A stretch of 64,000 nucleotides of DNA from a virus. A model generated the notes under the pieces. That model was not told where the DNA came from, searched no databases, and saw nothing but the letters and a program-made list of their open reading frames with translations. Position numbers and translations under genes: made by a program. Positions 3,519 to 59,972 of this stretch are shown here, piece by piece (within the stretch, counting starts at the first letter, position 1; every line of letters starts with the position of its first letter). Where the stretch lies: IMG/VR virus record IMGVR_UViG_3300005542_000007, positions 1 through 64,000 of that record. One strand, written 5' to 3'.

Positions 3519-4004
3519 ATGACAACAGCTTGGGGACAGTTTAGAAATTTTATAAACTCCAAAGAGGTTGGATACACTTTTACCCGTCAGAAGTTGTTTG
3601 ATTCCCTTCGCGCACTCAATCCCGCAACAATAGATGGGTACCGCTGTCTAGCACAGCAAGCCAAGTTTGTTGAGCGCGTTGGCCGTGGGCGATATAAAAT
3701 TGCAAATCATTTACCTGAAGGTTTAACAATGGGTTCCTTGTTTGCATTGTTGAGAGGTGACAATCTCACGTACATAGAAGAGATTCAAAAGCAAAAAGAG
3801 TTAAACGTAATTAAACAACAATTTAATAAAGACCGTAGAGAAGTGTTGAAGCATTTAATTGTTCAAATCTCACAGCACATTCCATATGCCGAAGCCATAG
3901 AATCTTCTGCGTTTGGTTTGAAACAACTAATCCGTAGCTGGAAATGGGAATTGAGTAAAGAAAAGAATCCAACAAAAAATTGGAGTGAAAGGAGAAATAA
4001 ATGA
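3519..4004 (+). CDS. hypothetical protein with internal DNL tag
   Basis: GGGAG RBS; contains GDNLTYIEEIQKQKEL internally. Confidence 0.6.
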   Translation: MTTAWGQFRNFINSKEVGYTFTRQKLFDSLRALNPATIDGYRCLAQQAKFVERVGRGRYKIANHLPEGLTMGSLFALLRGDNLTYIEEIQKQKELNVIKQQFNKDRREVLKHLIVQISQHIPYAEAIESSAFGLKQLIRSWKWELSKEKNPTKNWSERRNK

Positions 4005-4457
4005 TAAACTTGTTACTGTCTTCTAATGTGCTCTTGCTGCTCTCTACCCTCGTATTGTTGAGGCGCGATAGATTGGTAAGGGTAGCGCGTAAACAACACA
4101 AACGATTGCCGAGATAAATAATGGAAACATCTGCGATCAATTTAACTGGAACTCCGGGTTTCTGGACATTTGTTTTTGTTCACCCCTGTCTATCATTCTT
4201 CGCTTTTTGTTTTTTAGTATGGGCTTTCTTTGGCACCATCACAGATATTTTAATTGCATGGAGCAAAAGGAAATAATGGACAAAGTAGAAAGAGCAATTT
4301 TTCTTAAGTTTTTGAATTACAGTATTGTTACAATGAACTGGTTTGTTAGGCGCGTTGAAAAGAAATACGCCAGTGAGCTTGACCCCGAACAAGTTGCAGA
4401 GGTTAAAGAATTATTGAAAAAGTTAGAGGTAGAAAGAGACGGACTGGAGCACGAAGA

Positions 4458-4892
4458 GTGAAGCTTTTCATTGACGACTATCGCTCCGAACCAGAAGGTT
4501 GGCACTTAGCCAAGACGATTACGGAAGCAGTTCGTATTCTTTCTGGGCCTATTTATGCCGAGGCGATATCTTTGGACCACGACATCATATTTCGTGAAGG
4601 CAAGCACGGCTTTTCTGAAGAGACCTTTGCCACAGTTGCTCGTTATATTGCTGTCATGCCAAAAGAAAAATTACCTAAGATTGTGTATGTACACACAGCA
4701 AATCCGAAAGGTGCAAACAACATTTTGGAAATTCTTAAGGATGTTGTTCCCACTGTGAATATTGAAAATGATGGACATTTCAATACAACTGGCGACTACT
4801 CTGGTGATATTAATTACAAGGGGATATTGATAAAATTAGAGCAGGAACGTGAGAAGCAAGAACAGGAACATAAATTTGAAGGGGAGTTTTAA
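4458..4892 (+). CDS. cyclic-phosphate-processing receiver domain protein
   Basis: KLFIDDYR.EP.GW...ISLDHD...VHTANPKG signature. Confidence 0.8.
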   Translation: MKLFIDDYRSEPEGWHLAKTITEAVRILSGPIYAEAISLDHDIIFREGKHGFSEETFATVARYIAVMPKEKLPKIVYVHTANPKGANNILEILKDVVPTVNIENDGHFNTTGDYSGDINYKGILIKLEQEREKQEQEHKFEGEF

Positions 4893-4930
4893 AAGTAGCT
4901 GAAGTCTGGTATACTTAATATTGGAGAATC

Positions 4931-5341
4931 ATGAGCCTGTTCGAAACACTATTTGAAACATTTATTTGGGGAGTGTTTGGAACAACCTTTATTGTGGGAA
5001 TTGGGGCAGCTATTTTTACTTTGTTTAAATACCCACTCATCTTCTTGGGTCTGGTTGGGTTCTTCACATTCGTTTTATTTGTAGGTTGGTGCATCCTTCA
5101 CTACAATAACTTTTGCGAGTTGTTCAGCAGGAGAGCGGATAAAAATGCTCCCGTTCCGTCTTATGGGAATACAACGCTCGGTAAGTTGAGCAGACTCGAA
5201 AACAAATATCGAATAACCACCGTAGAATTTATGAGCTTTGCTTCGCGGGATTTGATGCCGTATGGGATGGACAACTTGGATTACTTGGAATGGGTTTCGC
5301 TCGTAAACGAATTGCCCTCTATAATCCAATGGGAGGCGTAA
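4931..5341 (+). CDS. membrane protein with near-terminal DNL-like tag
   Basis: Two N-terminal TM segments; MDNLDYLEW near C-terminus. Confidence 0.55.
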   Translation: MSLFETLFETFIWGVFGTTFIVGIGAAIFTLFKYPLIFLGLVGFFTFVLFVGWCILHYNNFCELFSRRADKNAPVPSYGNTTLGKLSRLENKYRITTVEFMSFASRDLMPYGMDNLDYLEWVSLVNELPSIIQWEA

Positions 5342-5718
5342 TGAATAAAATTACGGTATTTGTTCTCGGTGCTATGTTTGGTGAAATTACAATGCTTCCC
5401 GCTATCGCACACATTATAAACACGCCAGTGGTAAGAGCAGAAATAGTACCCAATTGTTATGAGCTTGTACAGCAAACGTTTGTACACGAAATTAAGAACG
5501 TCAAGAATTTTCAGGGGAAGGTCAGCACTTTAAAGATTCATTTAGTTAATCCACAATCCCTTCAAAAGATTTACGAGGATAGGTTTGGAGAAGATGATAG
5601 TGTTGGTACAATTATGGGTTTCTACGATGACAAAACAAACGAGATATTTTGCGTCTACGACGCTAATGTCCTTTCACACGAGTTGAAACACGTATTCGAA
5701 GGTTCTTGGCACAGATAG
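5341..5718 (+). CDS. putative secreted HExxH metallopeptidase
   Basis: GFYD...VLSHELKHV; hydrophobic N-terminus; GGAGG RBS before ATG 5341. Confidence 0.55.
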   Translation: MNKITVFVLGAMFGEITMLPAIAHIINTPVVRAEIVPNCYELVQQTFVHEIKNVKNFQGKVSTLKIHLVNPQSLQKIYEDRFGEDDSVGTIMGFYDDKTNEIFCVYDANVLSHELKHVFEGSWHR

Positions 5719-5727
5719 GAGAAAACG

Positions 5728-5994
5728 ATGAGTGAAGATACAGACCAGGATTTGGCTTGCGCTGGAATTGACGACGGTTATGAAAGTGTATTCGAAGAAC
5801 GGTTTAAACCCAGGCAGCAGTTCTTTTATGTTGTGTTGCAAGACAACACAGGAAAGATTGTAGATATTGGACACTACAACGATTATGAAGTAGCTTTGAT
5901 GCGCGGAATGGACAAAGCTAAAGAGACTGGAACTCAGTGGAGTATATTTTCACTGGCAGGGAAATTTGTTGATGGAAATTTTGTTGGAAAATAA
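5728..5994 (+). CDS. hypothetical protein
   Basis: AGGAG RBS. Confidence 0.55.
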   Translation: MSEDTDQDLACAGIDDGYESVFEERFKPRQQFFYVVLQDNTGKIVDIGHYNDYEVALMRGMDKAKETGTQWSIFSLAGKFVDGNFVGK

Positions 5995-6012
5995 AAATAA
6001 AGGAGAATTAAA

Positions 6013-6483: not shown

Positions 6484-6675
6484 ATGATTGATATTATTTG
6501 TAGGTGTGGACATAGTAAAAATGTTCATCAGCGCTTAGGTAATGAAGAGTATGGTGCCACAATGTGTCTTGCGGCAGGACCTGATACATTGGTTCAAGAT
6601 TGTCCATGTTATGAATATACACCAGACAATCTTCTTCACATTGAGCAAATGGCAAAGGAACGAAAGTTGACATGA
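6484..6675 (+). CDS. CxCGH zinc-binding mini-protein with C-terminal DNL tag
   Basis: CRCGH..H..C..CPC; ends PDNLLHIEQMAKERKLT*. Confidence 0.75.
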   Translation: MIDIICRCGHSKNVHQRLGNEEYGATMCLAAGPDTLVQDCPCYEYTPDNLLHIEQMAKERKLT

Positions 6676-6848
6676 TTGATATTCCTTGCACATGTAAGCA
6701 CAAAAATACGGAGCATTATAAACCGCCAAAAGCTACAACTTATTCGTCTTGTTGGTTTTGTGCGTTAGCGGGTAACTGGTGTGCTCAGTATGTACCAGAC
6801 AACTTATCTTACGTAGAACAACTGGCAAAGGAGAAGAATTTGATATGA
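6672..6848 (+). CDS. CxCxH mini-protein with C-terminal DNL tag (not in ORF track)
   Basis: Hand translation MIDIPCTCKH...CWFC...CAQYVPDNLSYVEQLAKEKNLI*; ATGA overlaps at both ends. Confidence 0.75.
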   Translation: MIDIPCTCKHKNTEHYKPPKATTYSSCWFCALAGNWCAQYVPDNLSYVEQLAKEKNLI

Positions 6849-7144
6849 AGATTGATTATTCAAAATGGTATTTTACCCCAACATCAAATGGGCAGTATTT
6901 TTCTGGGCTACTTAAAATATTCAACCCGGCAGAAAATATTGAACTGAGCCACTACGTTTATGGAAGTAAGGGCTCTTTGGACCCAACTGATGACCCATTA
7001 AAACATATCAAAGAAGTATGTAAGCTAGAAATAAGAAACTGGTACCTTAATCGAGAATACGATAAACTGGTTGACCAAAAGATACCAATTGAAGATAATC
7101 TGGATTACGTTGAGAATGAAGCAGAGAAACGAGGGTTGATTTGA
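6845..7144 (+). CDS. hypothetical protein with C-terminal DNL tag
   Basis: True start ATG 6845; ends EDNLDYVENEAEKRGLI*. Confidence 0.7.
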   Translation: MKIDYSKWYFTPTSNGQYFSGLLKIFNPAENIELSHYVYGSKGSLDPTDDPLKHIKEVCKLEIRNWYLNREYDKLVDQKIPIEDNLDYVENEAEKRGLI

Positions 7145-7634: not shown

Positions 7635-8165
7635 ATGCGAGCATATCTTTCGGGCAGTATGGCCGGACGATTTACCCAGGAAGTCCAGGCAGAACGCGCT
7701 GAAGCTTCTGCTGCCTTGGCAAAGATTGGTGTACGCGCTGCCGATCCTGCTGCGGCTGAATCACAGCTTTGGGGCCGACACGTAAAGTCTCGTGTCTCCA
7801 CAAAGTTCAAATATAAAATTATAGAAGCAATGGTGAAACGCGATCTTTGGTTGATTCGCCGTTGCGATATTGTGTTGGTTCTTACTGGCGATCAAGTAAG
7901 TGATGGAACGTGGCAAGAATGGTGTTACGCTAACATGATGGGCATCCCTGTTGTTATGATTGCCCCCAAACGGCACAAAGGAGAGCTTTCGGGTTGGGCC
8001 AATGTTACGATACCAAGGGGAAATATTGTACCGAATCTCAAAGCTGCTTGCAACCTGATTAAACGCAGGTATCTAAAAGAAGATGCACAATTCAAAGCGT
8101 ATTTCAATGCTTCAATCAAAAACGCCAACAGAAACATTAAGAACGGGAAGCGAAAAAAGCATTGA
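7635..8165 (+). CDS. nucleoside 2-deoxyribosyltransferase-like protein
   Basis: AYLSGSM...RDLWLIRRCDIVLV...SDGTWQE..YA...GIPV. Confidence 0.7.
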   Translation: MRAYLSGSMAGRFTQEVQAERAEASAALAKIGVRAADPAAAESQLWGRHVKSRVSTKFKYKIIEAMVKRDLWLIRRCDIVLVLTGDQVSDGTWQEWCYANMMGIPVVMIAPKRHKGELSGWANVTIPRGNIVPNLKAACNLIKRRYLKEDAQFKAYFNASIKNANRNIKNGKRKKH

Positions 8166-8190
8166 CAATTGGCAGCAAATCTGTTATAAT
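8162..8190 (+). promoter_or_regulatory. sigma70-type promoter
   Basis: TTGACA-17 bp-TATAAT with extended -10 TG. Confidence 0.85.
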
Positions 8191-8198: not shown

Positions 8199-8420
8199 AT
8201 GAAGATTAAAGCCACACACCTCTGTCGTTGTGGACACGCTGCGTGGAACCATACCCATGGGGTTTTTAATGGGGAAGAGTGCGTTGCTGATTTTAGAAAA
8301 GTTAGAAATAACGATAAAAATCCAAAAGGTTGTAGCAAATGTTATATAAGCTGTAAAAAGTTTCAATTGCCCAACTTCGACCTTGTTGAATATTTAGCTG
8401 AGAAGAGGGGATTAGTGTGA
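8199..8420 (+). CDS. CxCGH mini-protein with variant C-terminal tag
   Basis: CRCGH..H..C..C..C; ends LPNFDLVEYLAEKRGLV*. Confidence 0.72.
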   Translation: MKIKATHLCRCGHAAWNHTHGVFNGEECVADFRKVRNNDKNPKGCSKCYISCKKFQLPNFDLVEYLAEKRGLV

Positions 8421-8878
8421 GTGACGATAAAGATAACATTCGCGTTGACCTCTTAAAATTCCGCCGCAAGGCGTACCTCACTTATCCTGTGGGAAGTGAG
8501 GAACGGAAGATTTTCTTGAAAGCCGTCCTCAAACACGAATTGATGTTAACGGAAAGGGACGTTCCCCAGGACCTCATCAACCTTATTATCGAAGGTGGAC
8601 AGGTTGTGTTCTGGGATTCAATGAAGCATTTTCTTCTTTGGCTTGGAGCATCTACTGTGTGTGGCGGTATTTTTGCTTGGCTGTATACTCTGCGTATATT
8701 TATGGGGTTCGGCTTTCTTTTTTTCGGAGTGGGGTGCCTCACTATCGCAGTCCAATACCTTTACGAGTATTGGCGGTATTGCAAGAGTTTAAAGACAGTC
8801 AAAAAGTATTCGAATGATATGCAACAATATATAAATAAAATATCGAATGACATTAAGAGATTGGAAGGACCACGATGA
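8417..8878 (+). CDS. two-TM membrane protein
   Basis: Two hydrophobic stretches; GTGA coupling. Confidence 0.6.
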   Translation: MSDDKDNIRVDLLKFRRKAYLTYPVGSEERKIFLKAVLKHELMLTERDVPQDLINLIIEGGQVVFWDSMKHFLLWLGASTVCGGIFAWLYTLRIFMGFGFLFFGVGCLTIAVQYLYEYWRYCKSLKTVKKYSNDMQQYINKISNDIKRLEGPR

Positions 8879-10092
8879 ATACCGTTGAACAGTTTACGCA
8901 ACTCATACTTGATTGTCAACCAATTGACCTTTACGACTTTAAAGAAGTCGTAGGCGAACTTTTACCGTTAGAAGATTGTCAACAAGATCCGCAGTGGCAC
9001 GGAGAAAAATCGGTCCTGGCACATACCAATCTTGTGATGAAAGAGACGCTTGAGCAGATGCAAAACCTCCGCCAAGGTTTCCCAAGGATTGCTTTGTATA
9101 TTGCAGCTTTGTTACACGATGTGGGGAAACCAGATACGGCCAAGTTAAAAACCAATGGACATAATTCGTTCCATGGGCACGAGAAAGCGGGTGTGTGGAG
9201 AGCAAAAGAATTCCTGAAGAAATATTTCCCACAATTTAATTTTAGACAGCGGGACTTGATTCTGAATCTCGTTGAGTATCACGGCCACCCCAAGAGAATG
9301 ATTGAGGATGGTTCACAGGATGATAGGTTCAAGCGCCTGTCCCTTGAAGTGCCAACTCATCTTGTTTACAACCTGGAGATTGCCGACTTCAAAGGTCGAA
9401 TCGCCAACGATATTCCAAAGTCCTTGATTGTCCTTGACCAATTCAAGAAAAAGTGTGAGGACCTTGATATTTATGGGAAAGCGTACCAGATTCCCAATTC
9501 GAAGGAATTAACAAACCTCCAGTATTCTATTTTCAGATGGAACATTCTAATGCACCACGATGAAGATACTAATCAAAAAGAGATTGACAGAGTTATCAAA
9601 TTGACTGATAGACCGAATCCTTTGGAGCTTACTTTATTGGTTGGTTGCCCCGGTTCCGGGAAGACAACCTATCGAAACACATTGACAAATAGCAACGTTA
9701 TTTCTATGGATGACGAAAGGCAACGTCTTTGTGGCACCCCCAACGATATGTCTAGAAATCAAGAGGTTTTTAATAACTGCTTCAGAGAACTTAACAAGAA
9801 TATGAAGGCAGGTGAAAATGTCGTTTGGGACGCAACCTCTTACAGCCGCAAAGCCCGTAAACCCCTCCTAGAATCGGCTAGGAACCACGGAGCCAAGGTC
9901 AACCTCATCTACTGGGACCTCGCCATAGAAACCCTCTTAAAACGAAACGCTGAGCGTGAGAAGGTGGTTCCAGAGGACATTGTGTGGCGGTTTTATAAAA
10001 CAATTGAAACCCCGGCATCTTACGAGTACGATCAGCTTTTCGTATTTGATGACAAAGAGCAGGATTATGAAAAAGGAGAAAAAGCAACCTGA
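8875..10092 (+). CDS. HD-domain phosphohydrolase fused to AAA_33/Pnk-like P-loop kinase
   Basis: WHGE.SVLAHT...LLHDVGKP...HGHE; C-terminal VGCPGSGKTT, ISMD..R, WDAT, RNAER. Confidence 0.85.
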   Translation: MNTVEQFTQLILDCQPIDLYDFKEVVGELLPLEDCQQDPQWHGEKSVLAHTNLVMKETLEQMQNLRQGFPRIALYIAALLHDVGKPDTAKLKTNGHNSFHGHEKAGVWRAKEFLKKYFPQFNFRQRDLILNLVEYHGHPKRMIEDGSQDDRFKRLSLEVPTHLVYNLEIADFKGRIANDIPKSLIVLDQFKKKCEDLDIYGKAYQIPNSKELTNLQYSIFRWNILMHHDEDTNQKEIDRVIKLTDRPNPLELTLLVGCPGSGKTTYRNTLTNSNVISMDDERQRLCGTPNDMSRNQEVFNNCFRELNKNMKAGENVVWDATSYSRKARKPLLESARNHGAKVNLIYWDLAIETLLKRNAEREKVVPEDIVWRFYKTIETPASYEYDQLFVFDDKEQDYEKGEKAT

Positions 10093-10387
10093 AGTAGTCG
10101 AGTGGAGCGATTTGAAGGTGGGAGATTTTATTGAAAGCAACTTCAATAGAATGTTTTGCTTTACACGAAATAGTTCAGGGCCTTCTTGTTTGGGTAACAG
10201 CAAATGGAGAGAAGAAAAGCCTCCAATTGCTTATGTAGGTAGTGGCATTGTAGAATATACACGAATGAAACCCACTAAACCTTTTATAAAATTGTGCAAA
10301 CGGCTGTTGGATTTGAATCTGAAAGAATACCATTTGGACAATCTCTCTTACGTTGAAGCTCTTGCAGCGCTAAAGAAATATGATTGA
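10067..10387 (+). CDS. hypothetical protein with DNL tag (LAxLKxY subtype)
   Basis: ATG 10067; ends LDNLSYVEALAALKKYD*. Confidence 0.68.
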   Translation: MKKEKKQPEVVEWSDLKVGDFIESNFNRMFCFTRNSSGPSCLGNSKWREEKPPIAYVGSGIVEYTRMKPTKPFIKLCKRLLDLNLKEYHLDNLSYVEALAALKKYD

Positions 10388-10562
10388 GTATTGTTATTGT
10401 GGGCACAACATAAATGAACATGACGGGTGGGAGGGAGAACCAACGGGTTGTACGTATAGTGTTGAGATTGCTCACGGTACTCAATGTTGTTATTGCTCAG
10501 AATTCAAATTAGATAATCTTAAATTCGTAGAAGACCTTGCCAAACAAAAGCATCTATTATGA
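10380..10562 (+). CDS. CxCGH mini-protein with DNL tag
   Basis: CYCGH..H..C..CYC; ends LDNLKFVEDLAKQKHLL*. Confidence 0.75.
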   Translation: MIEYCYCGHNINEHDGWEGEPTGCTYSVEIAHGTQCCYCSEFKLDNLKFVEDLAKQKHLL

Positions 10563-10846
10563 CACCAATCAATGAAGTGCCAGTAGGAAAGTTTTGTAGA
10601 TTTGACGGGAATGTTGTTTATGTCCACAAGAATAATTTTAAGGATACTTACGCATTGATTCCCATAGTAGGATCAGTCCCACGAGATAAAAATTGGGATC
10701 ATCGTGTGTATGTTTACAAACGGATACAGAAGTCATGGGTAGAAGATGCAAAGAAATGGATGGATGAGTTACTTGAATATGGGCAAAGAATAGACAACCT
10801 CACCTACATCGAGAACCTAGCTATTTTAAAATCGTATGGAATTTAA
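10559..10846 (+). CDS. hypothetical protein with DNL tag (LAxLKxY subtype)
   Basis: Ends IDNLTYIENLAILKSYGI*. Confidence 0.7.
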   Translation: MTPINEVPVGKFCRFDGNVVYVHKNNFKDTYALIPIVGSVPRDKNWDHRVYVYKRIQKSWVEDAKKWMDELLEYGQRIDNLTYIENLAILKSYGI

Positions 10847-11219
10847 ACCAGGAGATATTTTATACCGTAAGTATTCAGATAAGAACGATTTGTATTGCGT
10901 TCTTGCGATTACGAAAGGGCCGTTTAACATCGGTCCCAATGTTAAATTAATTCGCATGGTTGGATATTATTCAATTACTCGCACACCTACCGTCATTGAC
11001 AGTGAAGTAAGCACCTCTATTGAAGAATGGTACATAAAGGCGGATTTGAATAATTACGACATTAAAGATAAATTTTTGAAGAAGATAAAAGAGTACTTAA
11101 TCGATAACCTTGGCAAGACAATTCATTACGATTTAATACTGGACAACTTGTTGTACATTGAAATCCTAGTAGCGTTGAAAAAGTACGAAACAAGTGATAT
11201 AGTTGAATCTGAAGAGTAA
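10836..11219 (+). CDS. hypothetical protein with DNL tag (LAxLKxY subtype)
   Basis: FKPGD start; LDNLLYIEILVALKKYE near end. Confidence 0.7.
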   Translation: MEFKPGDILYRKYSDKNDLYCVLAITKGPFNIGPNVKLIRMVGYYSITRTPTVIDSEVSTSIEEWYIKADLNNYDIKDKFLKKIKEYLIDNLGKTIHYDLILDNLLYIEILVALKKYETSDIVESEE

Positions 11220-11324: not shown

Positions 11325-11819
11325 TTGTTTCACAAGCCGTCTTACATGAAATCGTACAACAATTTTTATTACAAGAACAACAAAAGACGAATTTTGGTTA
11401 ACAAACAGTTGAAACGAATGCAAGGGTATTTTACCTTAAATGGGCACCTGGAACCTATCCATGATGCTATCAGGCGTTATGCTTCCCAGTGGAAGATTCC
11501 AATTGATACGCTCAAAAAGTTTAGGCGTTGGGCTTTGATGGATTCTGCATACGAAGAATTATTTAAAGCTTGGGAAGAGGCTTCCTTTCCCAAGGAGCTT
11601 ACCCCAATCGTAATGCGTCGAGTTAAGAAGCAAGGGTTTGTAATTGATAATTTGTATTGGTCCACGAAGAAGCAACATAGTTGGTGGTCTGGTGAAATTG
11701 ATAAGCTGAATGTTTTGCGTAAAGAGATGGAGAAGAGACAGATTAAAAATAACGAAGCAGATGAAGATGAACAGCAAGAGATGCTTGGCAGGTTGAAGGC
11801 CAAGAGGAAAAGTAAGTGA
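11325..11819 (+). CDS. hypothetical basic protein, possibly degenerate HNH-like
   Basis: AGGAG RBS with TTG start; P.VMRR....GFVIDNLYW resembles the S.DRID...GY..DN..W nuclease pattern. Confidence 0.5.
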   Translation: MFHKPSYMKSYNNFYYKNNKRRILVNKQLKRMQGYFTLNGHLEPIHDAIRRYASQWKIPIDTLKKFRRWALMDSAYEELFKAWEEASFPKELTPIVMRRVKKQGFVIDNLYWSTKKQHSWWSGEIDKLNVLRKEMEKRQIKNNEADEDEQQEMLGRLKAKRKSK

Positions 11820-12016
11820 ACATCCCGCTCGATACAAAGTGTGGAAAATGTTTACATACAAAATCATGCCATCAATTTTCTCTTGGAGGGAAAATAATTA
11901 TTTCAAGTTGCTACAAATGTGTAAATCCACATACACTATTTGAAAATTGCCCAAAATTTATTTTAGATAATTTAACTTTAGTAGAACTTTTAGCAAAAGA
12001 AAAGAACCTTATATGA
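11816..12016 (+). CDS. Cys/His mini-protein with DNL tag
   Basis: CGKCLH..H..C..C..C; ends LDNLTLVELLAKEKNLI*. Confidence 0.72.
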   Translation: MNIPLDTKCGKCLHTKSCHQFSLGGKIIISSCYKCVNPHTLFENCPKFILDNLTLVELLAKEKNLI

Positions 12017-12642
12017 TCCGCGCTAGAATCAACGAAGAGCCATTTGAATATAAAAATGCTTCTTTAAATTCCTACGCTTTCTCTCAAGAATCTGTAAAGA
12101 TTTTACCAGTACTTAAGACCTTCTCCAATCGTGTAGAATCGATGTCCAAGGGCCTTAATATCTTCCTTTGGTCGTCTAATAACGGAGCGGGTAAGACATA
12201 CCTCTCTTATGCAATTCTCAGGCAGGTTAGAGAATTCGATCAACCCCTATGGCAAAGAGAGAATGGAAACATCCTACCCTTTGGCAATGTCAAAACTATG
12301 GCGATTAATTTCAAACATTTCGTAGATCTCTGCAAGACATTCGACGACGGTGCAAAGAAATACCAGGAAGCTCTTTACAATGCCGACTATCTTTTGATTG
12401 ATGAAGTATCCTCGAATATGCTTTCACAGAATCCCCATGAGGATAAACGGCAACTATTGGTCGTATTGGATGATAGGTTGTCTGAGTTTCGTCCAACGAT
12501 TATCACAAGCAACAATTCACCTGAAGAGTTTCTAAATGCTTTTGGTCCTAATATTTATTCCAGGCTGCAATCCCGAACAGAATTTATTGAGGTTCCAGGA
12601 AAGGATATGAGGCCAATTTTAAAGATGGTAGAAGATGAATAA
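12013..12642 (+). CDS. DnaC/IstB-like ATPase (helicase loader-like)
   Basis: Walker A SSNNGAGKT, Walker B LLIDEV, RPTIITSN, IYSRL, GKDMR. Confidence 0.8.
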   Translation: MIRARINEEPFEYKNASLNSYAFSQESVKILPVLKTFSNRVESMSKGLNIFLWSSNNGAGKTYLSYAILRQVREFDQPLWQRENGNILPFGNVKTMAINFKHFVDLCKTFDDGAKKYQEALYNADYLLIDEVSSNMLSQNPHEDKRQLLVVLDDRLSEFRPTIITSNNSPEEFLNAFGPNIYSRLQSRTEFIEVPGKDMRPILKMVEDE

Positions 12643-12826
12643 TGCAGATATTTTGTGTAAGTGTGGTCATGTACAACGCATTCATACGCATTGGAATATG
12701 AATAATCTTGAGTGCGATGGTTGGATTAACGATGGGTTAGAAATGTGTGAATGTGAATGTAAGGAATTTGATCAGGACAATCTCTCCTATATTGAAGCTC
12801 TGGCAAAACAAAAAGATTTAGTGTGA
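12635..12826 (+). CDS. CxCGH mini-protein with DNL tag
   Basis: CKCGH..H..C..CECKEF; ends QDNLSYIEALAKQKDLV*. Confidence 0.75.
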   Translation: MNNADILCKCGHVQRIHTHWNMNNLECDGWINDGLEMCECECKEFDQDNLSYIEALAKQKDLV

Positions 12827-13023
12827 AGAACGATATTATTTGTCAATGTGGACACGAAAAGAAATACCATGGTAAAGTGGATGCACCGATATGGGATGAA
12901 TGGTGTAATGGTGGTAGAGTAAATGCAAGTCCGACGGATGATGGCGTATGTGTTTGTTGTTCGTACATTCCAGACAACCTCCTACACATTGAAATGATGG
13001 CAAAGAAAAAAGGACTGGTATGA
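12823..13023 (+). CDS. CxCGH mini-protein with DNL tag
   Basis: CQCGH..H..C..CVC; ends PDNLLHIEMMAKKKGLV*. Confidence 0.75.
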   Translation: MKNDIICQCGHEKKYHGKVDAPIWDEWCNGGRVNASPTDDGVCVCCSYIPDNLLHIEMMAKKKGLV

Positions 13024-13322
13024 ACCTACATAAGCTTTTCCGTCAATTATTTGAACTCCCAGATAAAGATAGCTACGAAGTTTTTGAATTCCTTGAGAAA
13101 GTAAGGGATGCTCGAACTGAGTTTGAAAACACAGGTACAGAATTTACATACGAACGATTCAAGCAATGGTTCCAAAAAGTGTACATAAATCGTTACAATC
13201 CACCTCATCCTCCATACGTTAAATTGTTGAAGATTATTGAGGGCGACAATTTGGATATTATCGAAGATGCTGCTGAAGAGAAAGGACTGATTCCAAAGGA
13301 ACAGGATGAAGAACCCAAGTAA
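13020..13322 (+). CDS. hypothetical protein with DNL tag (paralog of 18845-19156)
   Basis: MNLHKLF start; GDNLDIIEDAAEEKGLI near end. Confidence 0.7.
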   Translation: MNLHKLFRQLFELPDKDSYEVFEFLEKVRDARTEFENTGTEFTYERFKQWFQKVYINRYNPPHPPYVKLLKIIEGDNLDIIEDAAEEKGLIPKEQDEEPK

Positions 13323-13743
13323 TTACGGGGAACTTATCGCAAGCTACCTGTGTGGAACCTTGTGGTCGTATGCTGAATACGGAGACTACCAGGGCGATTA
13401 CGTAGCTTTGATTTACAAAGATTCCAACCTTCTAATTTATAAAGGTTCGTTTGGTTCTTGTAGCGGGTGTGATTGGCTGTCGGATTATTACGATAAAGAA
13501 ATCCCGGATAAAGACGCGCAGGAATACATGAAAGATATGAAACCCTTTCTAACCATTCCATCCGACTCCCTCCCAAAGACAGAAGGGGATTTAATCGCTT
13601 TGCTGCCAGCTAATACACGAGTTTGGCTGGACGACGAATGGACTGAATTTAAAGTGCATGATATTTTAAAGCAGATAAGTAGCCCGACGTGCGACAACCT
13701 GGATATTATAGAAACAGAAGCTAAAAGCAAAGGATTTATATGA
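13306..13743 (+). CDS. phage GSCSGCD-motif protein with appended DNL tag
   Basis: GDYQGD...GSFGSCSGCDW; ends CDNLDIIETEAKSKGFI*. Confidence 0.7.
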   Translation: MKNPSNYGELIASYLCGTLWSYAEYGDYQGDYVALIYKDSNLLIYKGSFGSCSGCDWLSDYYDKEIPDKDAQEYMKDMKPFLTIPSDSLPKTEGDLIALLPANTRVWLDDEWTEFKVHDILKQISSPTCDNLDIIETEAKSKGFI

Positions 13744-14408: not shown

Positions 14409-15026
14409 ATGAATAATGTAACCATAGCTTCAAATACTTCTTTCACAAGTATAGGCACAAATCCATGCCCAATTCATGGATGGCAACCTTGTAACTGTGC
14501 TGGGATTTACCAATCTTGTTGTTCCTCATGTGGACAATATTATAATGGACTTTCCCATATTTGTGGAACCTCTTACAATTACATTCAATGTAGTTTTTGT
14601 AATCAATTTTATACTCCACAGGCTGGGCATTATTGTCCAAATGTAATTGCCCCCCAGACTTGGAGCACCACTGGAACATTTCAGTTAACGGGAGTCTCTT
14701 TGAAAGAAGTGAAAGAGATTACTACTGATAATGAGTTAACATACGAATGGAATGGCGGTTCGTTTGATATGAAACTCCCATCAAAATTTAATGATTGTTT
14801 TCTTAAAGTTGGATATACATGGGCTCCTTTGTACCCTTTAATTTTCTCCGCTTTAGAGAATGACGAGAAAACTATTTCATTTCATATGGTTGTGGGAATT
14901 ACTGATAAAGTATTTGAGGGAGAGAAAGTAATTTTGAAAGCGGTTACAACGACTAAGATTGAAGACAATTTAACATTGGTGCAACTTTTGGAACGCGCTA
15001 GAGCATATTTAAAAAAGGACGCATGA
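14409..15026 (+). CDS. Cys/His-rich protein with DNL-like tail
   Basis: Repeated CxxC..HxC in the N-terminal half; EDNLTLVQLLERA near end. Confidence 0.6.
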   Translation: MNNVTIASNTSFTSIGTNPCPIHGWQPCNCAGIYQSCCSSCGQYYNGLSHICGTSYNYIQCSFCNQFYTPQAGHYCPNVIAPQTWSTTGTFQLTGVSLKEVKEITTDNELTYEWNGGSFDMKLPSKFNDCFLKVGYTWAPLYPLIFSALENDEKTISFHMVVGITDKVFEGEKVILKAVTTTKIEDNLTLVQLLERARAYLKKDA

Positions 15027-15487
15027 TTCTTCCCGTTAGACTTTACACCGAAGCCGTCCTCAATGCGCCTTGTAAGCCAGTAACTGACTTCAACGACCCG
15101 GTGCTTGAACAATTGATTCAGGATCTTTTAGAATCTTGTGCTGCTTACAATGGGGTTGGGCTTGCAGCAAACCAAGTTGGAATAGATAAATCCATTTGTG
15201 TTTTGGATGTTGAAGAACGAACAAAGAAAATGGTTTTGATTAATCCCACTATTGCAATGTATAGTAAAAAGAAGCTTGTTATGCTAGAAGCTTGCTTGTC
15301 GTGTCCAGGGCTTACAGTCCAAATGAAACGTCCAGAGACTCTAGTTGTAGACGCGAATTTGCTTACTGGAGAAAAAGTTAGGTACCAGTTTACAGGATAT
15401 GACGCGAAAATAGCAGGACATGAAATCGACCATTTGTTTGGAAAAACGATTGGCAGCACTGTTAAATCTTTGCGCCCCATGGTATAG
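15023..15487 (+). CDS. def: peptide deformylase
   Basis: GVGLAANQVG, EACLS (EGCLS-like), HEIDHL. Confidence 0.92.
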   Translation: MILPVRLYTEAVLNAPCKPVTDFNDPVLEQLIQDLLESCAAYNGVGLAANQVGIDKSICVLDVEERTKKMVLINPTIAMYSKKKLVMLEACLSCPGLTVQMKRPETLVVDANLLTGEKVRYQFTGYDAKIAGHEIDHLFGKTIGSTVKSLRPMV

Positions 15488-15489: not shown

Positions 15490-15651
15490 ATGGAAGAGTA
15501 TTGTATTTGTGGACATAGTAAATGGATTCATGAATACTTGAACGTAAGAGATATTCCAATTCATGATTTTAGTTGTTCATGTGAAATCTTCAAACTCGAT
15601 AATTTACGATTGGTAGAAGATATTGCAAAGCAAAGAAACTTAACAAACTAA
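15490..15651 (+). CDS. CxCGH mini-protein with DNL tag (not in ORF track)
   Basis: Hand translation MEEYCICGHSKWIH...CSCEIFKLDNLRLVEDIAKQRNLTN*. Confidence 0.72.
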   Translation: MEEYCICGHSKWIHEYLNVRDIPIHDFSCSCEIFKLDNLRLVEDIAKQRNLTN

Positions 15652-16619: not shown

Positions 16620-17276
16620 ATGTTATTTAAAAATCTAAAAAAACAAATTTGTAAGCATGGCCACGATACTTTTGTTTGTGGACGAAACAAATGGCGTGAG
16701 TGCAATGAATGTAAAAAATCTAAAAATCGTATTGATCCCAATAAAGATTCTAGAAGTAGACCCATCTGTATAAATGGTCACGACATTTCTGTTGTTGGTA
16801 GAGATGAGTGGGGAAATTGCAACACTTGTGTTATTATTCGAAAAAATATATGGGATGAAAATAACAGACATAAAATTTCTGAGGATAACAAGAAATGGAA
16901 AGAAGCACACCCAGATTATTTTAAGCAGTGGAGGGCTAAACACAGGCCCGAAAGTAATGAAAAACATAAAGAATGGATAAAAAAGCATCCAGAAGTTTTA
17001 CGAATTGCTAGGATGAAATGTAAAACAAATCGTAATATCCGCATTGTTGCTTGGACGGATTGGAAAAGTATATTAGAATTTGAAAAGAAGAAACCAACTG
17101 GCATGACAACGGACCATATTATTCCGCTTCAAAATGAGTTAGTTTGGGGTTTGCATGTTTCTTGGAATATGCAGTATTTAACTAAATCAGAAAATTCTAA
17201 GAAACATAATAAAGTAAATTTAATTGAAGTATCAGAATGGTACGGTAAGATTTTAGAAAAGGAAGGATTAAAATAA
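16620..17276 (+). CDS. HNH homing endonuclease
   Basis: CxxGH repeats; TDHIIPL...GLHVSWNMQYLTKSENSKK. Confidence 0.85.
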   Translation: MLFKNLKKQICKHGHDTFVCGRNKWRECNECKKSKNRIDPNKDSRSRPICINGHDISVVGRDEWGNCNTCVIIRKNIWDENNRHKISEDNKKWKEAHPDYFKQWRAKHRPESNEKHKEWIKKHPEVLRIARMKCKTNRNIRIVAWTDWKSILEFEKKKPTGMTTDHIIPLQNELVWGLHVSWNMQYLTKSENSKKHNKVNLIEVSEWYGKILEKEGLK

Positions 17277-17288: not shown

Positions 17289-17816
17289 ATGAATGAAGAC
17301 TTATCAAAGGGCGTAGATATTAGAGAAGAGGTAGAACAAGTTACGATCTCAAAGGCCGACTTGCAAAAAATGCAAGAAACAATAACGCTTCTTTCTCAAC
17401 AGTTTCAGAAAGAAGTGGTTCATCCAGCCGCGCCAGCCATCCAGCCAGCCCAAGCTGTTATCACAGCAGATTCCAATGCTGCCAAACCAGAAGCAGCCAA
17501 AGAAGTTATTTTAGAAGAGGTTGATGCCGCTACGCTGTTTAACCAGAATCCTTGGAGAATTGGTGCTAAAGTGCGCGTATCTGAAAAGTACCCGCAGATT
17601 CAAGGTGGAGTAAATTGGAAAGGCCGTGTGGGAACTGTTACAAAGATTACCAAAGCACCTTCAGGCGTTAAGGTTGTGGAAGTAGCTTTCGGTGATGTTC
17701 AGATTCCATTCCAGAAAGCCCACCCAACAAAGCCTGGGATTATTCAAAAGGGTTATCGCATTCAGAAAGCTATTCAGACATTCGATGACAGTTGCTTGGA
17801 ACCAGTGTACGAATAA
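17289..17816 (+). CDS. hypothetical protein with KOW/SH3-like C-terminal domain
   Basis: AAGGAG RBS; IGAKVRV...GRVGTVTKI. Confidence 0.6.
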   Translation: MNEDLSKGVDIREEVEQVTISKADLQKMQETITLLSQQFQKEVVHPAAPAIQPAQAVITADSNAAKPEAAKEVILEEVDAATLFNQNPWRIGAKVRVSEKYPQIQGGVNWKGRVGTVTKITKAPSGVKVVEVAFGDVQIPFQKAHPTKPGIIQKGYRIQKAIQTFDDSCLEPVYE

Positions 17817-18018
17817 GCCGTGGAAAGTACGTCCAGATAGTGCGGAAGATCTTTATTTTTGCATTTGTGGACACGAATTAATTCACCATTATTTAACTGG
17901 TGATGGTTGTAATTCTTGCTTTTTTGAAAGCAAGCCACAAGATAAATGGCAACACAGGTTTCAACTGGACAACTTATTTTACATCGAAGAACTTGCCAAA
18001 AAACGAGGATTGGTGTGA
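17785..18018 (+). CDS. CxCGH mini-protein with DNL tag
   Basis: CICGH..H..C..C; ends LDNLFYIEELAKKRGLV*; start position uncertain. Confidence 0.7.
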   Translation: MTVAWNQCTNKPWKVRPDSAEDLYFCICGHELIHHYLTGDGCNSCFFESKPQDKWQHRFQLDNLFYIEELAKKRGLV

Positions 18019-18194
18019 GACTGGATTTGGATAACGTATGCATCTGTTCACACAAATTACGTTTTCATGTTGACCACGAAATTATTGGTATTGTAAAGTA
18101 TTGCGTAGGCGATGATATTTGTGTATGTCAGGATTTTAAATTGGACAATTTATCCTACATTGAAGACTTGGCGGAAGAACGAGGACTTGTGTGA
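18015..18194 (+). CDS. CxCxH mini-protein with DNL tag
   Basis: GTG start in GTGA overlap; CICSH..H..C..CVC; ends LDNLSYIEDLAEERGLV*. Confidence 0.75.
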   Translation: MRLDLDNVCICSHKLRFHVDHEIIGIVKYCVGDDICVCQDFKLDNLSYIEDLAEERGLV

Positions 18195-18373
18195 TGGATG
18201 TTCTTTGTAAATGCGGGCACACACAATCCATTCATTTTCCCGAACTCAAACACTACAAGTGTGCCGGATCTTTTAATGACGGTCTAGAAATGTTAGATTG
18301 TGAATGTAAGGAATTTGATCAGGACAATTTAAGTTACGTTGAGCAGCTTGCAAAGAAAAGGAATTTGATATGA
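18191..18373 (+). CDS. CxCGH mini-protein with DNL tag (paralog of 12635-12826)
   Basis: NDGLEM..CECKEFDQDNLSYVEQLAKKRNLI*. Confidence 0.75.
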   Translation: MMDVLCKCGHTQSIHFPELKHYKCAGSFNDGLEMLDCECKEFDQDNLSYVEQLAKKRNLI

Positions 18374-18844: not shown

Positions 18845-19156
18845 ATGAGCAACCTACATAAGTTGTTTAAAGAGTTACAAAAGTTGGATTACGATGATTT
18901 TGATTTGTTGTGTGATGCTTGGCGTGAATCTACACAAGTAAAAAACCAGTGTAAAAATATGGGAATTAAGTACAACGATAAATATTTAATTAATGCCGTG
19001 ACGAAGAGAGCAACTTCCAAATTAAATTACCCAGGAGCGGCACCCCCAATAAATCCCCCCGGACAAAATAATCGGGATAAAAAGATTCATCAGATAATTG
19101 TGGGTGACAATCTGGACATTATTGAAGAGGCCGCAAAAAAGAAAGGATTGATATGA
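18845..19156 (+). CDS. hypothetical protein with DNL tag
   Basis: MSNLHKLF start; ends GDNLDIIEEAAKKKGLI*. Confidence 0.7.
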   Translation: MSNLHKLFKELQKLDYDDFDLLCDAWRESTQVKNQCKNMGIKYNDKYLINAVTKRATSKLNYPGAAPPINPPGQNNRDKKIHQIIVGDNLDIIEEAAKKKGLI

Positions 19157-19911
19157 TTTTAAATATACTTGCTGTCATCTTAGGAATTGCTGCGGTTATT
19201 GGAATCCACGAAGCTTCCCACATGCTTGTTTCCAAACTGTTTGGTGTAAAGGTTTTAAAATTCTCCCTGGGGTTTGGTCCAGTTATTTTCTCCAAAAAGA
19301 TTGGAGATACGCAGTACCAACTCTCCGCTCTCCCTTTGGGTGGGTACGTCCAGTGCGCTGGCGAGGACCCAGAAAGTAACGTACAGAATGGGTTTTTCAG
19401 TCTACCATGGTACAAACGTTCCCTGATAGCCCTAGCTGGCCCTGTGGCTAACCTTATCCTTGGATTTGGACTAATCTTTGCCCTCCTCGTTTTGTTCAAA
19501 GGATGGCCTATTTTAGCGGGACTGGGACAAGCGTTTAAATTGTGCTCGTTCGTTATTACAACCAGCTTAAAATGGATATTTGGAATGTTACCAGCAGCCA
19601 AAGATGCAGCACAAGGGTCTGGATTATCGGGCCCGATAATGGTGACAAAAATTCTGATGTCCTCAGCCAAAGAGGGAGCGGCACAATTTTTATTTGTCTT
19701 GTCTCTTATTTCTTTAAGCTTGGGGTTGTTTAATCTTTTCCCCATACCTGCACTTGATGGAGGCCACGTCTTTCTGTACACGCTTGAAGGTATTAGGGGC
19801 AAAAAGTTTTCGAACAAAGTGTATTTGGTATGGAATTTTGTAGGGATGCTTTTGCTGGCCAGCTTAATGTTGTACACTTGTTTTTCCGACATAACTACCC
19901 TGCTTAAATAA
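19153..19911 (+). CDS. RseP-like site-2 (M50) intramembrane metalloprotease, no PDZ domain
   Basis: IHEASH, FSLGFGP, LPLGGYV, AGPVAN, SGPI, NLFPIPALDGG. Confidence 0.9.
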   Translation: MILNILAVILGIAAVIGIHEASHMLVSKLFGVKVLKFSLGFGPVIFSKKIGDTQYQLSALPLGGYVQCAGEDPESNVQNGFFSLPWYKRSLIALAGPVANLILGFGLIFALLVLFKGWPILAGLGQAFKLCSFVITTSLKWIFGMLPAAKDAAQGSGLSGPIMVTKILMSSAKEGAAQFLFVLSLISLSLGLFNLFPIPALDGGHVFLYTLEGIRGKKFSNKVYLVWNFVGMLLLASLMLYTCFSDITTLLK

Positions 19912-20255
19912 TGGACCCAAAGATTATAAACGACACATTCGAAAAAGATCCACATATTTGTTCGATGTGCGAATGTGGGTCTGGAAATCATTTAATTTTC
20001 TATTCATGCCCGTTATTCAGTGGACACCCAATCTGCCAGGATTGTTGCATGGTGGATATGATGAAAGACGATATAGATACAAAAGTATCCGCGAAGTTGG
20101 GCAACCCAATAGATAAAGCAACAATCAATTCCATTTGTCGTAGCTGTGGTATGAATAACGCCTGTCAAAATCAAAAGTTGGCTGAGGATTTAGAACGAGG
20201 AGCACTAGGAGAACCCAATGGCCCAGAACAAGACGGACCTAGAAAAACGCGCTGA
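19911..20255 (+). CDS. Cys-rich hypothetical protein
   Basis: Multiple CxxC motifs; TAATG coupling. Confidence 0.55.
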   Translation: MDPKIINDTFEKDPHICSMCECGSGNHLIFYSCPLFSGHPICQDCCMVDMMKDDIDTKVSAKLGNPIDKATINSICRSCGMNNACQNQKLAEDLERGALGEPNGPEQDGPRKTR

Positions 20256-21720: not shown

Positions 21721-21978
21721 ATGAAGCTCTACATTGTAACCCTCTTTGACCCTAACGGACTTTCAGATAAAATTATTAAAGTATTTTCCACAAAAGAAAA
21801 TACAGAGAAGTGGATGCGTTCTGCCAAACTAATGCACCAGGAATTGTTTGGGGATAAGACCTTTGATATTACCCAGCAATACAAGGTTAAAGAGGCAGAT
21901 TTGGACAATCTTGATTTTGTGGACCTCCTTGCCGAAGCAAGGGGTCTTGGTGCTCAAGTTAAACCTTCCCAGCCCTAG
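21721..21978 (+). CDS. hypothetical protein with DNL tag
   Basis: LDNLDFVDLLAEARGLG near end. Confidence 0.65.
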   Translation: MKLYIVTLFDPNGLSDKIIKVFSTKENTEKWMRSAKLMHQELFGDKTFDITQQYKVKEADLDNLDFVDLLAEARGLGAQVKPSQP

Positions 21979-56508: not shown

Positions 56509-56532
56509 GCATAATAAGTTAGTTTTAAGAAT

Positions 56533-58262: not shown

Positions 58263-58294
58263 TAGATTTTAAATAGATAAGAAAAGGATAGAAA

Positions 58295-58573
58295 ATGATA
58301 CGTAAAATAGCCATCTTTTTAACCAATTTATTGGATATTATTGATTTTCCTGGGTATACATTTTTAAACCTTTGGAGCTTAAGTTTATTGGTAGTGTGTT
58401 TGTGGGTATGCATTGAGACCAAAACCATACCAAATGCAGTAGCAGCCATATTTTCAAGTATTGTGTTGGCGTATAGTGCATCCAGTATTGGTAATAAGTA
58501 CATGTCTAAGAATGGCAACGACTCGATTAAGGAGAAGAAAAGCAATGATAACAATTCTGGCAATCCTAGCTAA
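58295..58573 (+). CDS. holin-like two-TM protein
   Basis: Two TM segments and charged C-terminus; near the putative lysin. Confidence 0.5.
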   Translation: MIRKIAIFLTNLLDIIDFPGYTFLNLWSLSLLVVCLWVCIETKTIPNAVAAIFSSIVLAYSASSIGNKYMSKNGNDSIKEKKSNDNNSGNPS

Positions 58574-59132
58574 AATTAAAAATTTTGTTGTTAAATATTG
58601 GAGACAGCTTTTACTGGTCAGCTTAGGGGCTTTTTTGATGCTTAAAGCTCAGGGATGTGCGAAGAAGCTATTTCCGCCTAAAACGCCAGTTTCAGGCCCT
58701 TCTAGCCCCACTGTACCAGTACTTCCCAAAGATGATAGGGAAATAATTAAAGTAGATACCCAGCATAATCAAACAACCGTTACAACTGAAAAGGGTACTA
58801 CGACGGTGACGGGCACACGAGATGTAACCGTAGAAGTTAAGAAAAATGGCCAAGTTGTTGTAAAAGAAAAAACAATTGGCTTTGAATGTCGTCCAGGTCT
58901 TGGTGCCCATATTGGCCCAGATGGTGGAAGATTGGACCTTACCGTGGATTGGGGCTATTGGAAGCGGGTAGATGGTTTGGTTGGTATTGGAACCGATTTT
59001 AAAAATGTACAAAATACGGATATTTTTATTGGTGCTGCGTACCAATTTTCTAATAAGTTGCCAAACACTTCTATTTTTGGTGGTATAAATCAGCACAAGA
59101 ACCCACTTATTGGTCTTCGTGTGAGGTTCTAA
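58545..59132 (+). CDS. membrane-anchored protein (possible spanin/outer-membrane lysis component)
   Basis: ATG 58545; TM followed by Cys; beta-strand C-terminus ending GLRVRF. Confidence 0.45.
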   Translation: MITILAILAKIKNFVVKYWRQLLLVSLGAFLMLKAQGCAKKLFPPKTPVSGPSSPTVPVLPKDDREIIKVDTQHNQTTVTTEKGTTTVTGTRDVTVEVKKNGQVVVKEKTIGFECRPGLGAHIGPDGGRLDLTVDWGYWKRVDGLVGIGTDFKNVQNTDIFIGAAYQFSNKLPNTSIFGGINQHKNPLIGLRVRF

Positions 59133-59258
59133 TCATGGAATGCCCCGCTTGCGGCTCAAAACTTGTTTCTTTATTAAATTGTGGCTGTCCAGATCCAAAC
59201 TGTAAAAATTTGCTCGAATGTACAGAATGTCAAAGTGTGTTCAACATAGGTAAATAAA

Positions 59259-59723
59259 ATGGACCTTAATTCAATTCTTCAGTTCATTTTATCGCTTATT
59301 GGTCAAGCCAAGGTTGCCAATACATCGACAAATCAAACTCCAAGCGTAAATACAATTTCAATTCTTCGTGGTCCACTTGAGCCATCAGCGGGAATTTTTG
59401 GAGATGGAAGTTTAACGTGGGATTCTTTCAAATTTGTATCGCTAGAAAACGAAAAGCTTTTTATCCCCGCAGGTACATATAAGTTAGAATGGCATGAAAG
59501 TCCTCATTTGGGAAACGCAACAGTCCCCTTGTTGATCGGGGTTCCAGGAAGGACAGAAATTTTATTGCATTGGGGTAATTTCGAAGCTTGTAGCGACGGT
59601 TGTATTTTGTGTGGAACTGTTAGAGATGGAAATGATATTGATACAACCCAAACTGCTTGTAAAGAACTTTTTGCGAAGATTAACGCTGTTGGAATTGAGA
59701 ATTGTCAGATAACAATCTCATAA
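59259..59723 (+). CDS. DUF5675-family putative endolysin
   Basis: SLE.....IPAGTY....SP..G....L..VPGRTEILLH.GN....S.GCIL.G. Confidence 0.78.
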   Translation: MDLNSILQFILSLIGQAKVANTSTNQTPSVNTISILRGPLEPSAGIFGDGSLTWDSFKFVSLENEKLFIPAGTYKLEWHESPHLGNATVPLLIGVPGRTEILLHWGNFEACSDGCILCGTVRDGNDIDTTQTACKELFAKINAVGIENCQITIS

Positions 59724-59744
59724 GATAAGACCCGAAGGAATATC

Positions 59745-59972
59745 ATGTACAAAGAACAGAACGAATGTAAACATGAAAAGTTAACATTTGGGAGCGGAGA
59801 TTTTTATATATTTTGTGTGGATTGTACAAGATCCTGGGTTCATAGGAATACGGCTGATGATACGACTTCCTACGAGCACAGTCCTTTAATTTTCAACAAT
59901 GAATATCGTGTCAAATTCCCAGATAATCTCACTTTCATAGAAACGAAAGCTCAAGAAAAGGGATTGGTATGA
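59745..59972 (+). CDS. Cys/His mini-protein with DNL tag, located in the late region
   Basis: CKH...CVDC; ends PDNLTFIETKAQEKGLV*; ATGA overlap. Confidence 0.7.
   Translation: MYKEQNECKHEKLTFGSGDFYIFCVDCTRSWVHRNTADDTTSYEHSPLIFNNEYRVKFPDNLTFIETKAQEKGLV

Follow-up and report, generated by a model that had tools for sequence, protein, structure and literature searches.

A family of small phage proteins sharing a 16-residue C-terminal DNL helix in a virus genome from a soil metagenome

Genes carrying the DNL tail

The DNA analysed here, referred to as the window, is a stretch of 64 kb from a virus contig assembled from a soil metagenome (IMG/VR record IMGVR_UViG_3300005542_000007); window coordinates are positions 1–64,000 of the complete 141,877-bp record, which is treated below as the genome. 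About 32 small genes of this genome share a 16-residue C-terminal helix, hereafter the DNL tail, which in this clade takes the form DNLxY[IV]ExLAKx[RK][GN]L[IV]-stop. The original prediction had listed 20 open reading frames (ORFs) of the window with such a tail, together with three weaker copies in the ORFs starting at 3519, 4931 and 14409, and had interpreted the motif as an addressing signal carried by unrelated proteins; every one of these ORFs translates as reported at its position. The DNL tails represent a real, strongly non-random and undescribed family with a portable C-terminal helix.

All of the carrier genes in the window lie on the plus strand. Zinc mini-proteins with the pattern CxCGH..H..CxC begin with two neighbouring genes at 6484–6675 and 6672–6848, both with a 16-residue tail, the stop codon of the first overlapping the start of the second, and that of the second overlapping the start of the next carrier at 6845. 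The protein encoded at 8199–8420 has a tail variant beginning with P-N-F, and its stop codon overlaps the GTG start of a 153-residue ORF (8417). Further zinc mini-proteins with 16-residue tails are encoded at 10380–10562, 11816–12016 (a CxxC variant coupled to a DnaC/IstB-like gene at 12013), 12635–12826 (the query for AlphaFold2 modelling), 12823–13023, 17785–18018, 18015–18194 (with a GTG start lying in the preceding stop overlap) and 18191–18373 (coupled to a 157-residue ORF at 18370), while the zinc mini-protein encoded at 15490–15651 has a tail of 17 residues. A divergent Cys/His protein of 75 residues with a 16-residue tail is encoded within the structural region (59745–59972), and its gene is coupled to a 194-residue ORF (59969).

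The non-zinc carriers of the window are more diverse. Three of them are beta-rich, SH3/KOW-like proteins bearing a second form of the tail, class B, with the pattern DNLxYVExLAxLKKYD: a 106-residue protein (10067–10387), for which the ATG of the next gene is located within the K-Y-D codons; a 95-residue protein (10559–10846), composed of a beta body and a helix hairpin whose second helix is the 17-residue tail; and a 127-residue protein (10836–11219), in which the helix is followed by 9 extra residues. Two helical bodies, likely to be paralogues, are encoded at 13020–13322 (100 residues, with 9 further residues after the DNL helix) and at 18845–19156 (103 residues, with a 16-residue tail, coupled to the gene of an M50 peptidase at 19153). 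The other bodies are a 99-residue protein with a 16-residue tail (6845–7144), a 145-residue protein with a GSCSGCD motif and a 16-residue tail (13306–13743), coupled to the ThyX gene (13740), and an 85-residue protein with a degenerate DNL helix and 8 further residues (21721–21978). The weaker copies are found in a 161-residue protein with an internal DNLxYIE sequence in which Ala10 is replaced (3519–4004; kept at 63% identity in the related 151-kb IMG/VR contig G001), in a 136-residue protein with a hydrophobic N-terminus, taken for a membrane protein in the original prediction, and a DNLDYLE-type copy 23 residues before the stop codon (4931–5341), and in a Cys-rich protein of 205 residues, where a weak DNLTLVQ copy is located 20 residues before the stop codon (14409–15026).

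A strict pattern covering the first ten residues of the motif occurs 20 times in the window and 32 times in the whole genome, always in coding frames of the plus strand, and in 14 of the window copies the stop codon follows exactly 16 residues past the Asp. When a looser pattern was applied to the whole genome, 33 matches were obtained, corresponding to 32 motif copies and one evident chance match (85422); none was located on the minus strand. A position matrix built from 25 exact tails and used with a threshold of 10 bits or more likewise revealed 33 matches, all in plus-strand coding frames and with a distance to the stop codon of exactly 16 residues in 26, while the same matrix gave 1, 0, 0, 0 and 0 matches in five shuffled genomes. 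In agreement with the original prediction, none of the recognisable enzymes or head proteins that were checked ends in the motif.

The description of the tail as amphipathic did not hold. The hydrophobic moment of the consensus tail is 0.16, and 76% of shuffled versions of these residues score higher; its three acidic and two basic residues make it slightly acidic. The low hydrophobic moment and the lack of net positive charge argue against a C-terminal membrane-targeting amphipathic helix of the MinD/FtsA type, and a membrane-binding role of the DNL helix is unlikely.

A zinc mini-protein family and other tailed bodies

Twenty-two of the proteins align as M..CxCGHx4H ... (C..C) ... CxCxxFxL-DNLxYIExLAKxRxL[IV]. 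Paralogues of this zinc family account for about 21 of the 32 carriers genome-wide and for 11–12 of the 20 in the window. The view that the bodies preceding the tail are unrelated therefore fails for these 11–12 ORFs, which belong to one Cys/His family; the rest represent at least six other body types.

A profile of the 22 paralogues was compared with 1.84 billion cluster representatives and matched 1,289 metagenomic clusters (formed at 50% identity) at E ≤ 1e-3, including 120 at E ≤ 1e-10. Among the best 150 of the 1,289, nearly all representatives are 50–80 residues long with the tail at the end, and the distance from the Asp to the C-terminus is exactly 16 residues in 144. D1, N2 and L3 do not vary at all in these 144 sequences; E7, A10 and L15 are each absent from only one of them, and position 13 is Arg or Lys in 143. 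The ten clusters for which sources were looked up all consist of unnamed metagenomic proteins, and the neighbours in the ESM Atlas are viral "hypothetical protein" clusters with no Pfam families.

Searches of curated collections agree with the proposal that this family is undescribed. In Pfam-A, the zinc members and most of the other bodies had no significant match, only sub-threshold chance matches (E ≤ 1) being obtained; NCBIfam (20) yielded no match at E below 0.015; and in PHROGs v4 the only match was that of the 13306 body (phrog_28969, 1.9e-10), outside the tail. The family profile found only chance-level matches to bL31 and MCM zinc sites among PDB sequences, a tblastn search with one member against 50,697 isolated phage genome records found no match, and in a single-sequence word search the query itself was the sole match. 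No description of the DNL motif was found in literature searches. Longer fused forms were not seen among 8,000 candidates, which is weak evidence.

An AlphaFold2 model of the 12635 protein (predicted local distance difference test score, pLDDT, of 72) consists of short strands around the Cys/His ligands and a single helix, residues 49–59, which is the tail; the helix starts four residues past the last Cys pair. The closest structural neighbours of this model are RING, SP-RING and U-box domains at Z scores of only 2.0–2.7, which are not significant, and a Foldseek search with it returned nothing at E ≤ 0.001. Homodimer prediction with an alignment gave a score of 0.00, which says nothing for or against a dimer.

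Tandem fusions with two zinc modules in one ORF occur in metagenomic sequences (P0002, P0007, P0028 and P0032). In P0007 and P0028 the first zinc module is devoid of the helix, and in P0002 and P0032 the internal helix is kept as its DNLxYLE part only. A Cys/His mini-protein (CxxCKH...) without the DNL helix is encoded at genome position 106187 and is conserved in G001; no other tail-less member was seen in this genome.

To define the variety of proteins carrying the helix, the bodies of 59 tail ORFs from this genome and two relatives were clustered after removal of the tails, which resulted in a zinc cluster of 32 and at least a dozen other groups and singletons. Within this genome alone, the non-zinc carriers form at least six body types. 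The model of the 10559 protein (pLDDT 87, predicted template modelling score 0.78) is unlike that of the zinc protein: four strands are followed by a helix at residues 58–74 and by the DNL helix at residues 80–92. It has no significant structural neighbour, and fold searches with the 10559 and 12635 models found nothing above Z 4.4. The body of the 13306 protein is 36% identical (E 4e-13) to a 122-residue protein of Escherichia phage KS_A8 (Seuratvirus), and this coliphage homologue ends without the DNL helix. Since the homologue has no tail, the helix was added to a pre-existing protein family in the clade of the phage studied here. These comparisons fit the DNL helix being a portable module.

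Overlap with downstream start signals and selection on the protein

All 25 exact tails of the genome end in [A/G/T]TGA, producing ATGA, GTGA or TTGA overlaps with the next gene. TGA is the stop codon in only 27% of long ORFs (p about 8e-15 for the difference). The overlapping start codon opens an ORF of 54–323 residues in 22 of the 25 cases, including the DnaC-like, ThyX and M50 genes. The Shine-Dalgarno consensus of the phage is AAGGAG, and the K-x-[KR]-G codons of the tail (e.g., AAA GAA AAA GGA) place a site of this type about 7–12 nucleotides upstream of the overlapping start, so that the last 6–7 codons of the tail encode both the Shine-Dalgarno site and the start codon of the next gene. 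Codon choice reflects this arrangement: Gly14 is encoded by GGA in 72% of tails (39% genome-wide; p 1e-4), the final Ile by ATA in 73% (18% genome-wide; p 6e-12), and the final Val by GTA or GTG in 26 of 28 tails (45% genome-wide; p 1e-7). A third of the motif is thus an overlapping translation signal, a fact missed in the original prediction.

A similar arrangement was found in a distant clade represented by a 4.5-kb Logan contig (SRR21686421, L019), which contains 14 back-to-back zinc mini-protein genes. The tails in this clade are shorter (DNLxYLE-x-K-Y-[DE]-x-K...), and neighbouring genes overlap by 14–26 nucleotides; the next ATG is usually located within the Tyr-Asp/Glu/Gly codons, 28 nucleotides past the Asp codon in 8 of 13 genes, and a GGAG sequence is supplied by the Leu-Glu-x-Lys codons. 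The class-B tails of the SH3-like bodies in the window, ending in LKKYD, are organised in the same way. The core conserved independently of the clade is DNLxY[ILV]E, and no overlapping translation signal explains it.

Another explanation is that the tail acts in cis: as a nascent peptide, it would make the ribosome pause at termination and favour re-initiation at the start codon overlapping its end. Its fixed length, with exactly 16 residues to the stop codon in 144 of the best 150 metagenomic representatives and in 69 tails of four genomes, would be expected for such an element, as would the independence of the motif from the body. Among these 69 exact tails, 56 overlap the next start by 4 nucleotides and 4 more by 1 nucleotide, giving 60 in total. 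However, the core is also kept at 14–27 residues from the stop codon or internally, the 9 tails without overlap still retain the amino acid motif, and modelling places the helix folded within a compact protein. Because the non-overlapping tails keep the motif, the protein constraint is not merely a by-product of coupling. To our knowledge, no known arrest peptide resembles the DNL tail, and we regard a nascent-peptide function as very improbable.

The conservation at the level of protein, rather than of nucleic acid, asserted in the original prediction from synonymous codon variation was supported by two types of data. In the 25 exact tails, the information content of third codon positions is near background at Leu3 (0.18 bit), x4, x8 and Ala10, and in general departs from background only at the start codon and the ribosome-binding site. 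In orthologous tails on non-zinc bodies from three related phages, 66 synonymous and 28 non-synonymous codon differences were counted among 176 codons; D-N-L is nearly always kept in these orthologues, with one copy having Asn for Asp, and the acidic residue at position 7 is kept. RNAalifold analysis of 24 tails with their flanks predicted no conserved base pairs and an energy of 0. A conserved RNA element in the tail-coding DNA was ruled out by this result and by the free third codon positions. Since synonymous sites vary and RNA structure is not conserved, selection acts on the protein.

Genome context, possible role and known systems

The only sequencing data set listed as containing this DNA is a soil metagenome, probably the source sample itself; no RNA data set is among those listed. 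The nearest isolate is Bacillus phage G, whose portal protein shares 30% identity with the one encoded here. Strong Shine-Dalgarno sites, extended −10 promoters and the relationship to phage G, taken together, suggest a host belonging to Bacillota. Near-consensus sigma-70-type TTGACA-17-TATAAT sites are distributed unevenly, with nine on the plus strand versus one on the minus strand, and five of the nine lie in or beside regions of tail genes. A perfect TTGACA-17-TGnTATAAT site is located at 8162–8190 on the plus strand, just upstream of the tail gene at 8199. These promoter-like sites probably mark early transcription units and point to early transcription by the host polymerase. Other perfect or one-mismatch sites of the latter type were found at genome positions 2732, 101298, 111373 and 113657.

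Related viruses carry similar arrays. The contig L003 has 20 tails in 15.6 kb and is syntenic with the window, L004 has 9 tails in 20 kb, and G001 has 35 tails and 27 zinc-family matches. A degenerate DNA pattern searched in IMG/VR identified four stretches. Three belong to a single 151-kb relative, while the remaining one (L006), with stop codons close upstream in its frame, is probably due to chance. Most core proteins of the genome are 70–98% identical to their counterparts in G001 (portal, 90%; a 322-residue protein of the head region, 98%), whereas the best G001 matches of the zinc paralogues are 31–55% identical, most of them 36–54%. Because the zinc paralogues diverge more than the core proteins, the bodies appear to turn over quickly while the helix stays fixed.

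Genes of HNH or endonuclease VII-like proteins, which may be homing endonucleases, are scattered among the arrays (window positions 16620–17276, 20887–21708 and 22241–22921, and genome positions 129499–130146). Elsewhere the genome contains a row of auxiliary genes unusual for a phage, encoding a NAMPT/NAPRTase-like enzyme, a Mom-family protein and a BT1/MFS-type transporter (genome positions 113724–118741). A set for RNA repair and translation comprises T4-type RNA ligase 1, a fusion of an HD phosphatase with a P-loop kinase, peptide deformylase and an RlaP-type nucleotidyltransferase (window positions 1670–2800, 8875–10092 and 15023–15487, and genome positions 106848–107825).

Taking these data together, the DNL tail is a short C-terminal alpha-helix. 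It is what stays constant in a family of early zinc mini-proteins that has expanded greatly in this clade, and it was also moved onto at least six other small bodies. The variable bodies would each recognise a different target, while the invariant helix would link all of them to one shared phage or host partner; separately, the 3′ end of the tail provides a ready-made translational-coupling cassette for the next gene. We tentatively favour this reading, in which the DNL helix is a docking handle common to a library of early proteins that have diversified, on account of the constant helix on variable or unrelated bodies, its invariant polar residues, selection at the protein level, the early-type location of the genes and the rapid evolution of the bodies. 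That D1, N2 and E7 remain unchanged on different folds seems more than folding alone would need.

Several observations weigh against a docking handle. In roughly two thirds of the carrier proteins, the "tag" can be accounted for as the conserved helix of a homologous small zinc domain with a hypervariable middle. The motif is internal or followed by 4–11 extra residues in the proteins encoded at 21721, 10836, 13020, 14409 and genome position 133417, and it is fully internal in the 3519 protein, 80 residues before the stop codon; because such extended and internal copies exist, a free C-terminus at a fixed distance is not always required. In the compact fold modelled for the 10559 protein, the DNL helix packs on the helix that comes before it in the chain, and it may thus be partly buried rather than free to dock. 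Finally, positions 11–16 of the tail (6–11 in the short-tail clade L019) are constrained by the ribosome-binding site and start codon of the downstream gene, which reduces the protein-level signal to about 7–10 residues.

According to the main rival explanation, there is no common partner: the tail would be a structural core helix of fast-diversifying microproteins, spread by recombination at the 3′ ends of genes in tandem arrays and kept for stabilisation and as a coupling signal. The paralogy of about 21 of the 32 carriers, the compact SH3-like model and the strong dual coding all point in this direction, as do the position of the helix four residues past the last Cys pair, where the helix of a zinc finger would be, and the tandem, head-to-tail order of the tail genes. 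On the other hand, D1, N2 and E7 do not change over a set of more than 1,000 diverged sequences or from one fold to another, though other capping residues could serve folding. The first ten codons are free of any overlapping signal and yet are under purifying selection in the non-zinc bodies, and the helix-less first modules of two of the tandem fusions indicate that the zinc module is not strictly dependent on the helix. On balance, a helix with structural and coupling roles only seems rather doubtful, but it deserves serious consideration.

The nature of the partner of a docking handle could be related to proteolysis. Genes of a site-2 type M50 peptidase (19153–19911, plus strand) and a ClpP-family protease (20218–20880, plus strand), both candidate partners, are neighbours and directly precede the head module; L003 has the same pair. 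The genome also encodes a 465-residue AAA protein (positions 127852–129249) with an ATPase module closest to the D2 rings of Cdc48/VAT/AFG2 (E about 1e-41). As regards its N-terminal part of about 190 residues, Atlas models similar to residues 1–195 fall in clusters of AAA proteins, two of which mostly contain ClpS or ClpX zinc-finger domains, an observation that serves only as a lead. The AAA protein ends in FDLDNLDRW, which was considered as a truncated tail, and the likeness was taken as chance, the G001 orthologue ending in LLDDIDRW.

One may therefore ask whether the helix is a handle or degron for phage proteolysis, by which tail proteins would reach the Cdc48/VAT-like AAA protein with ClpP or M50, either as timed substrates or as adaptors for host proteins. 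Besides this AAA module and the Atlas lead, the location of the M50 and ClpP genes beside tail genes, with the M50 start overlapping the stop codon of 18845, and the gene order shared with L003 are consistent with such a role. Against it, ClpP, encoded next to the head module, may be a head maturation protease, degrons are usually conserved loosely while this helix is conserved tightly, and AAA, ClpP and M50 proteins are ordinary accessory genes of large phages. We consider this explanation improbable. The same low likelihood attaches to the more specific form of the docking reading, in which the helix would be an address label plugging more than 30 early mini-proteins into one hub, e.g., the Cdc48-like AAA protein with ClpP or M50, so that they would constitute a viral adaptor library handing host proteins to degradation. 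If this reading were true, the family would be a bacterial-virus counterpart of the F-box/PRANC adaptor families.

Irrespective of its function, the family can now be annotated: it has a simple signature, is present in about 20–35 copies per genome and is absent from curated libraries, and large phages carry many tiny fast-evolving protein genes that nobody can yet interpret. The portable helix also offers an experimental handle, since one peptide could be used to fish for a common partner of about 30 proteins. At the same time, conserved C-termini in phage gene arrays should be checked for ribosome-binding sites and start codons before being named tags.

Short portable cargo signals are known in phages. 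The internal proteins IPII and IPIII of T4 (PMC9958956) and DarB of P1 (PMC9024508) have late-acting, N-terminal capsid-targeting signals of about 10–30 residues, which in T4 are cut off by the head protease. Like these signals, the DNL tail is a short portable peptide on otherwise unrelated proteins and would define one destination, so that one could imagine a packaging signal by which the small proteins would enter the head and be injected along with the DNA. The presence in the head module of very large multi-enzyme proteins resembling cargo, and of the tail gene at 59745 within the structural region, is compatible with this possibility. Unlike the T4 and P1 signals, the DNL motif is C-terminal and helical, it is absent from the ends of head proteins and proteases, and nearly all tail genes are located at a distance from the head module, in promoter-rich, early-type, non-structural regions where the promoters are of the host type. 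Packaging is accordingly a highly unlikely function of the tail.

Among published cases, the most similar is Bacillus phage G, for which a lineage-specific expansion of about 35 small zinc ribbons of unknown role, suggested to be transcription factors or DNA-binding proteins, was described (Iyer et al. 2021, PMC7824862). As in phage G, the genome studied here is that of a large tailed phage in which a single tiny zinc-binding protein has diverged into dozens of copies. Unlike here, the report on phage G mentions neither a shared C-terminal helix on other bodies nor a coupling cassette (PMC7824862). The family profile had no match at E ≤ 1 in the full 497,513-bp phage G record, and the two zinc expansions therefore do not seem to be homologous.

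Terminal residues that are fixed because their codons contain a downstream gene's ribosome-binding site and start codon are also known from the ATGA start-stop coupling of phage operons. Unlike in plain start-stop coupling, only the last 6–7 residues of the tail are explained in this way; in this clade, signals of this type are all located downstream of the DNLxY[ILV]E core.

In poxvirus ankyrin/PRANC (F-box-like) proteins and in SspB with its C-terminal ClpX-binding tail, a diversified body is combined with a short constant C-terminal dock to one hub. The DNL proteins could be compared with them by analogy of logic only, there being no sequence or fold relationship. Lineage-specific expansions of small zinc proteins in large phages are a known kind of system, to which the DNL proteins add an undescribed family and a portable C-terminal helix.

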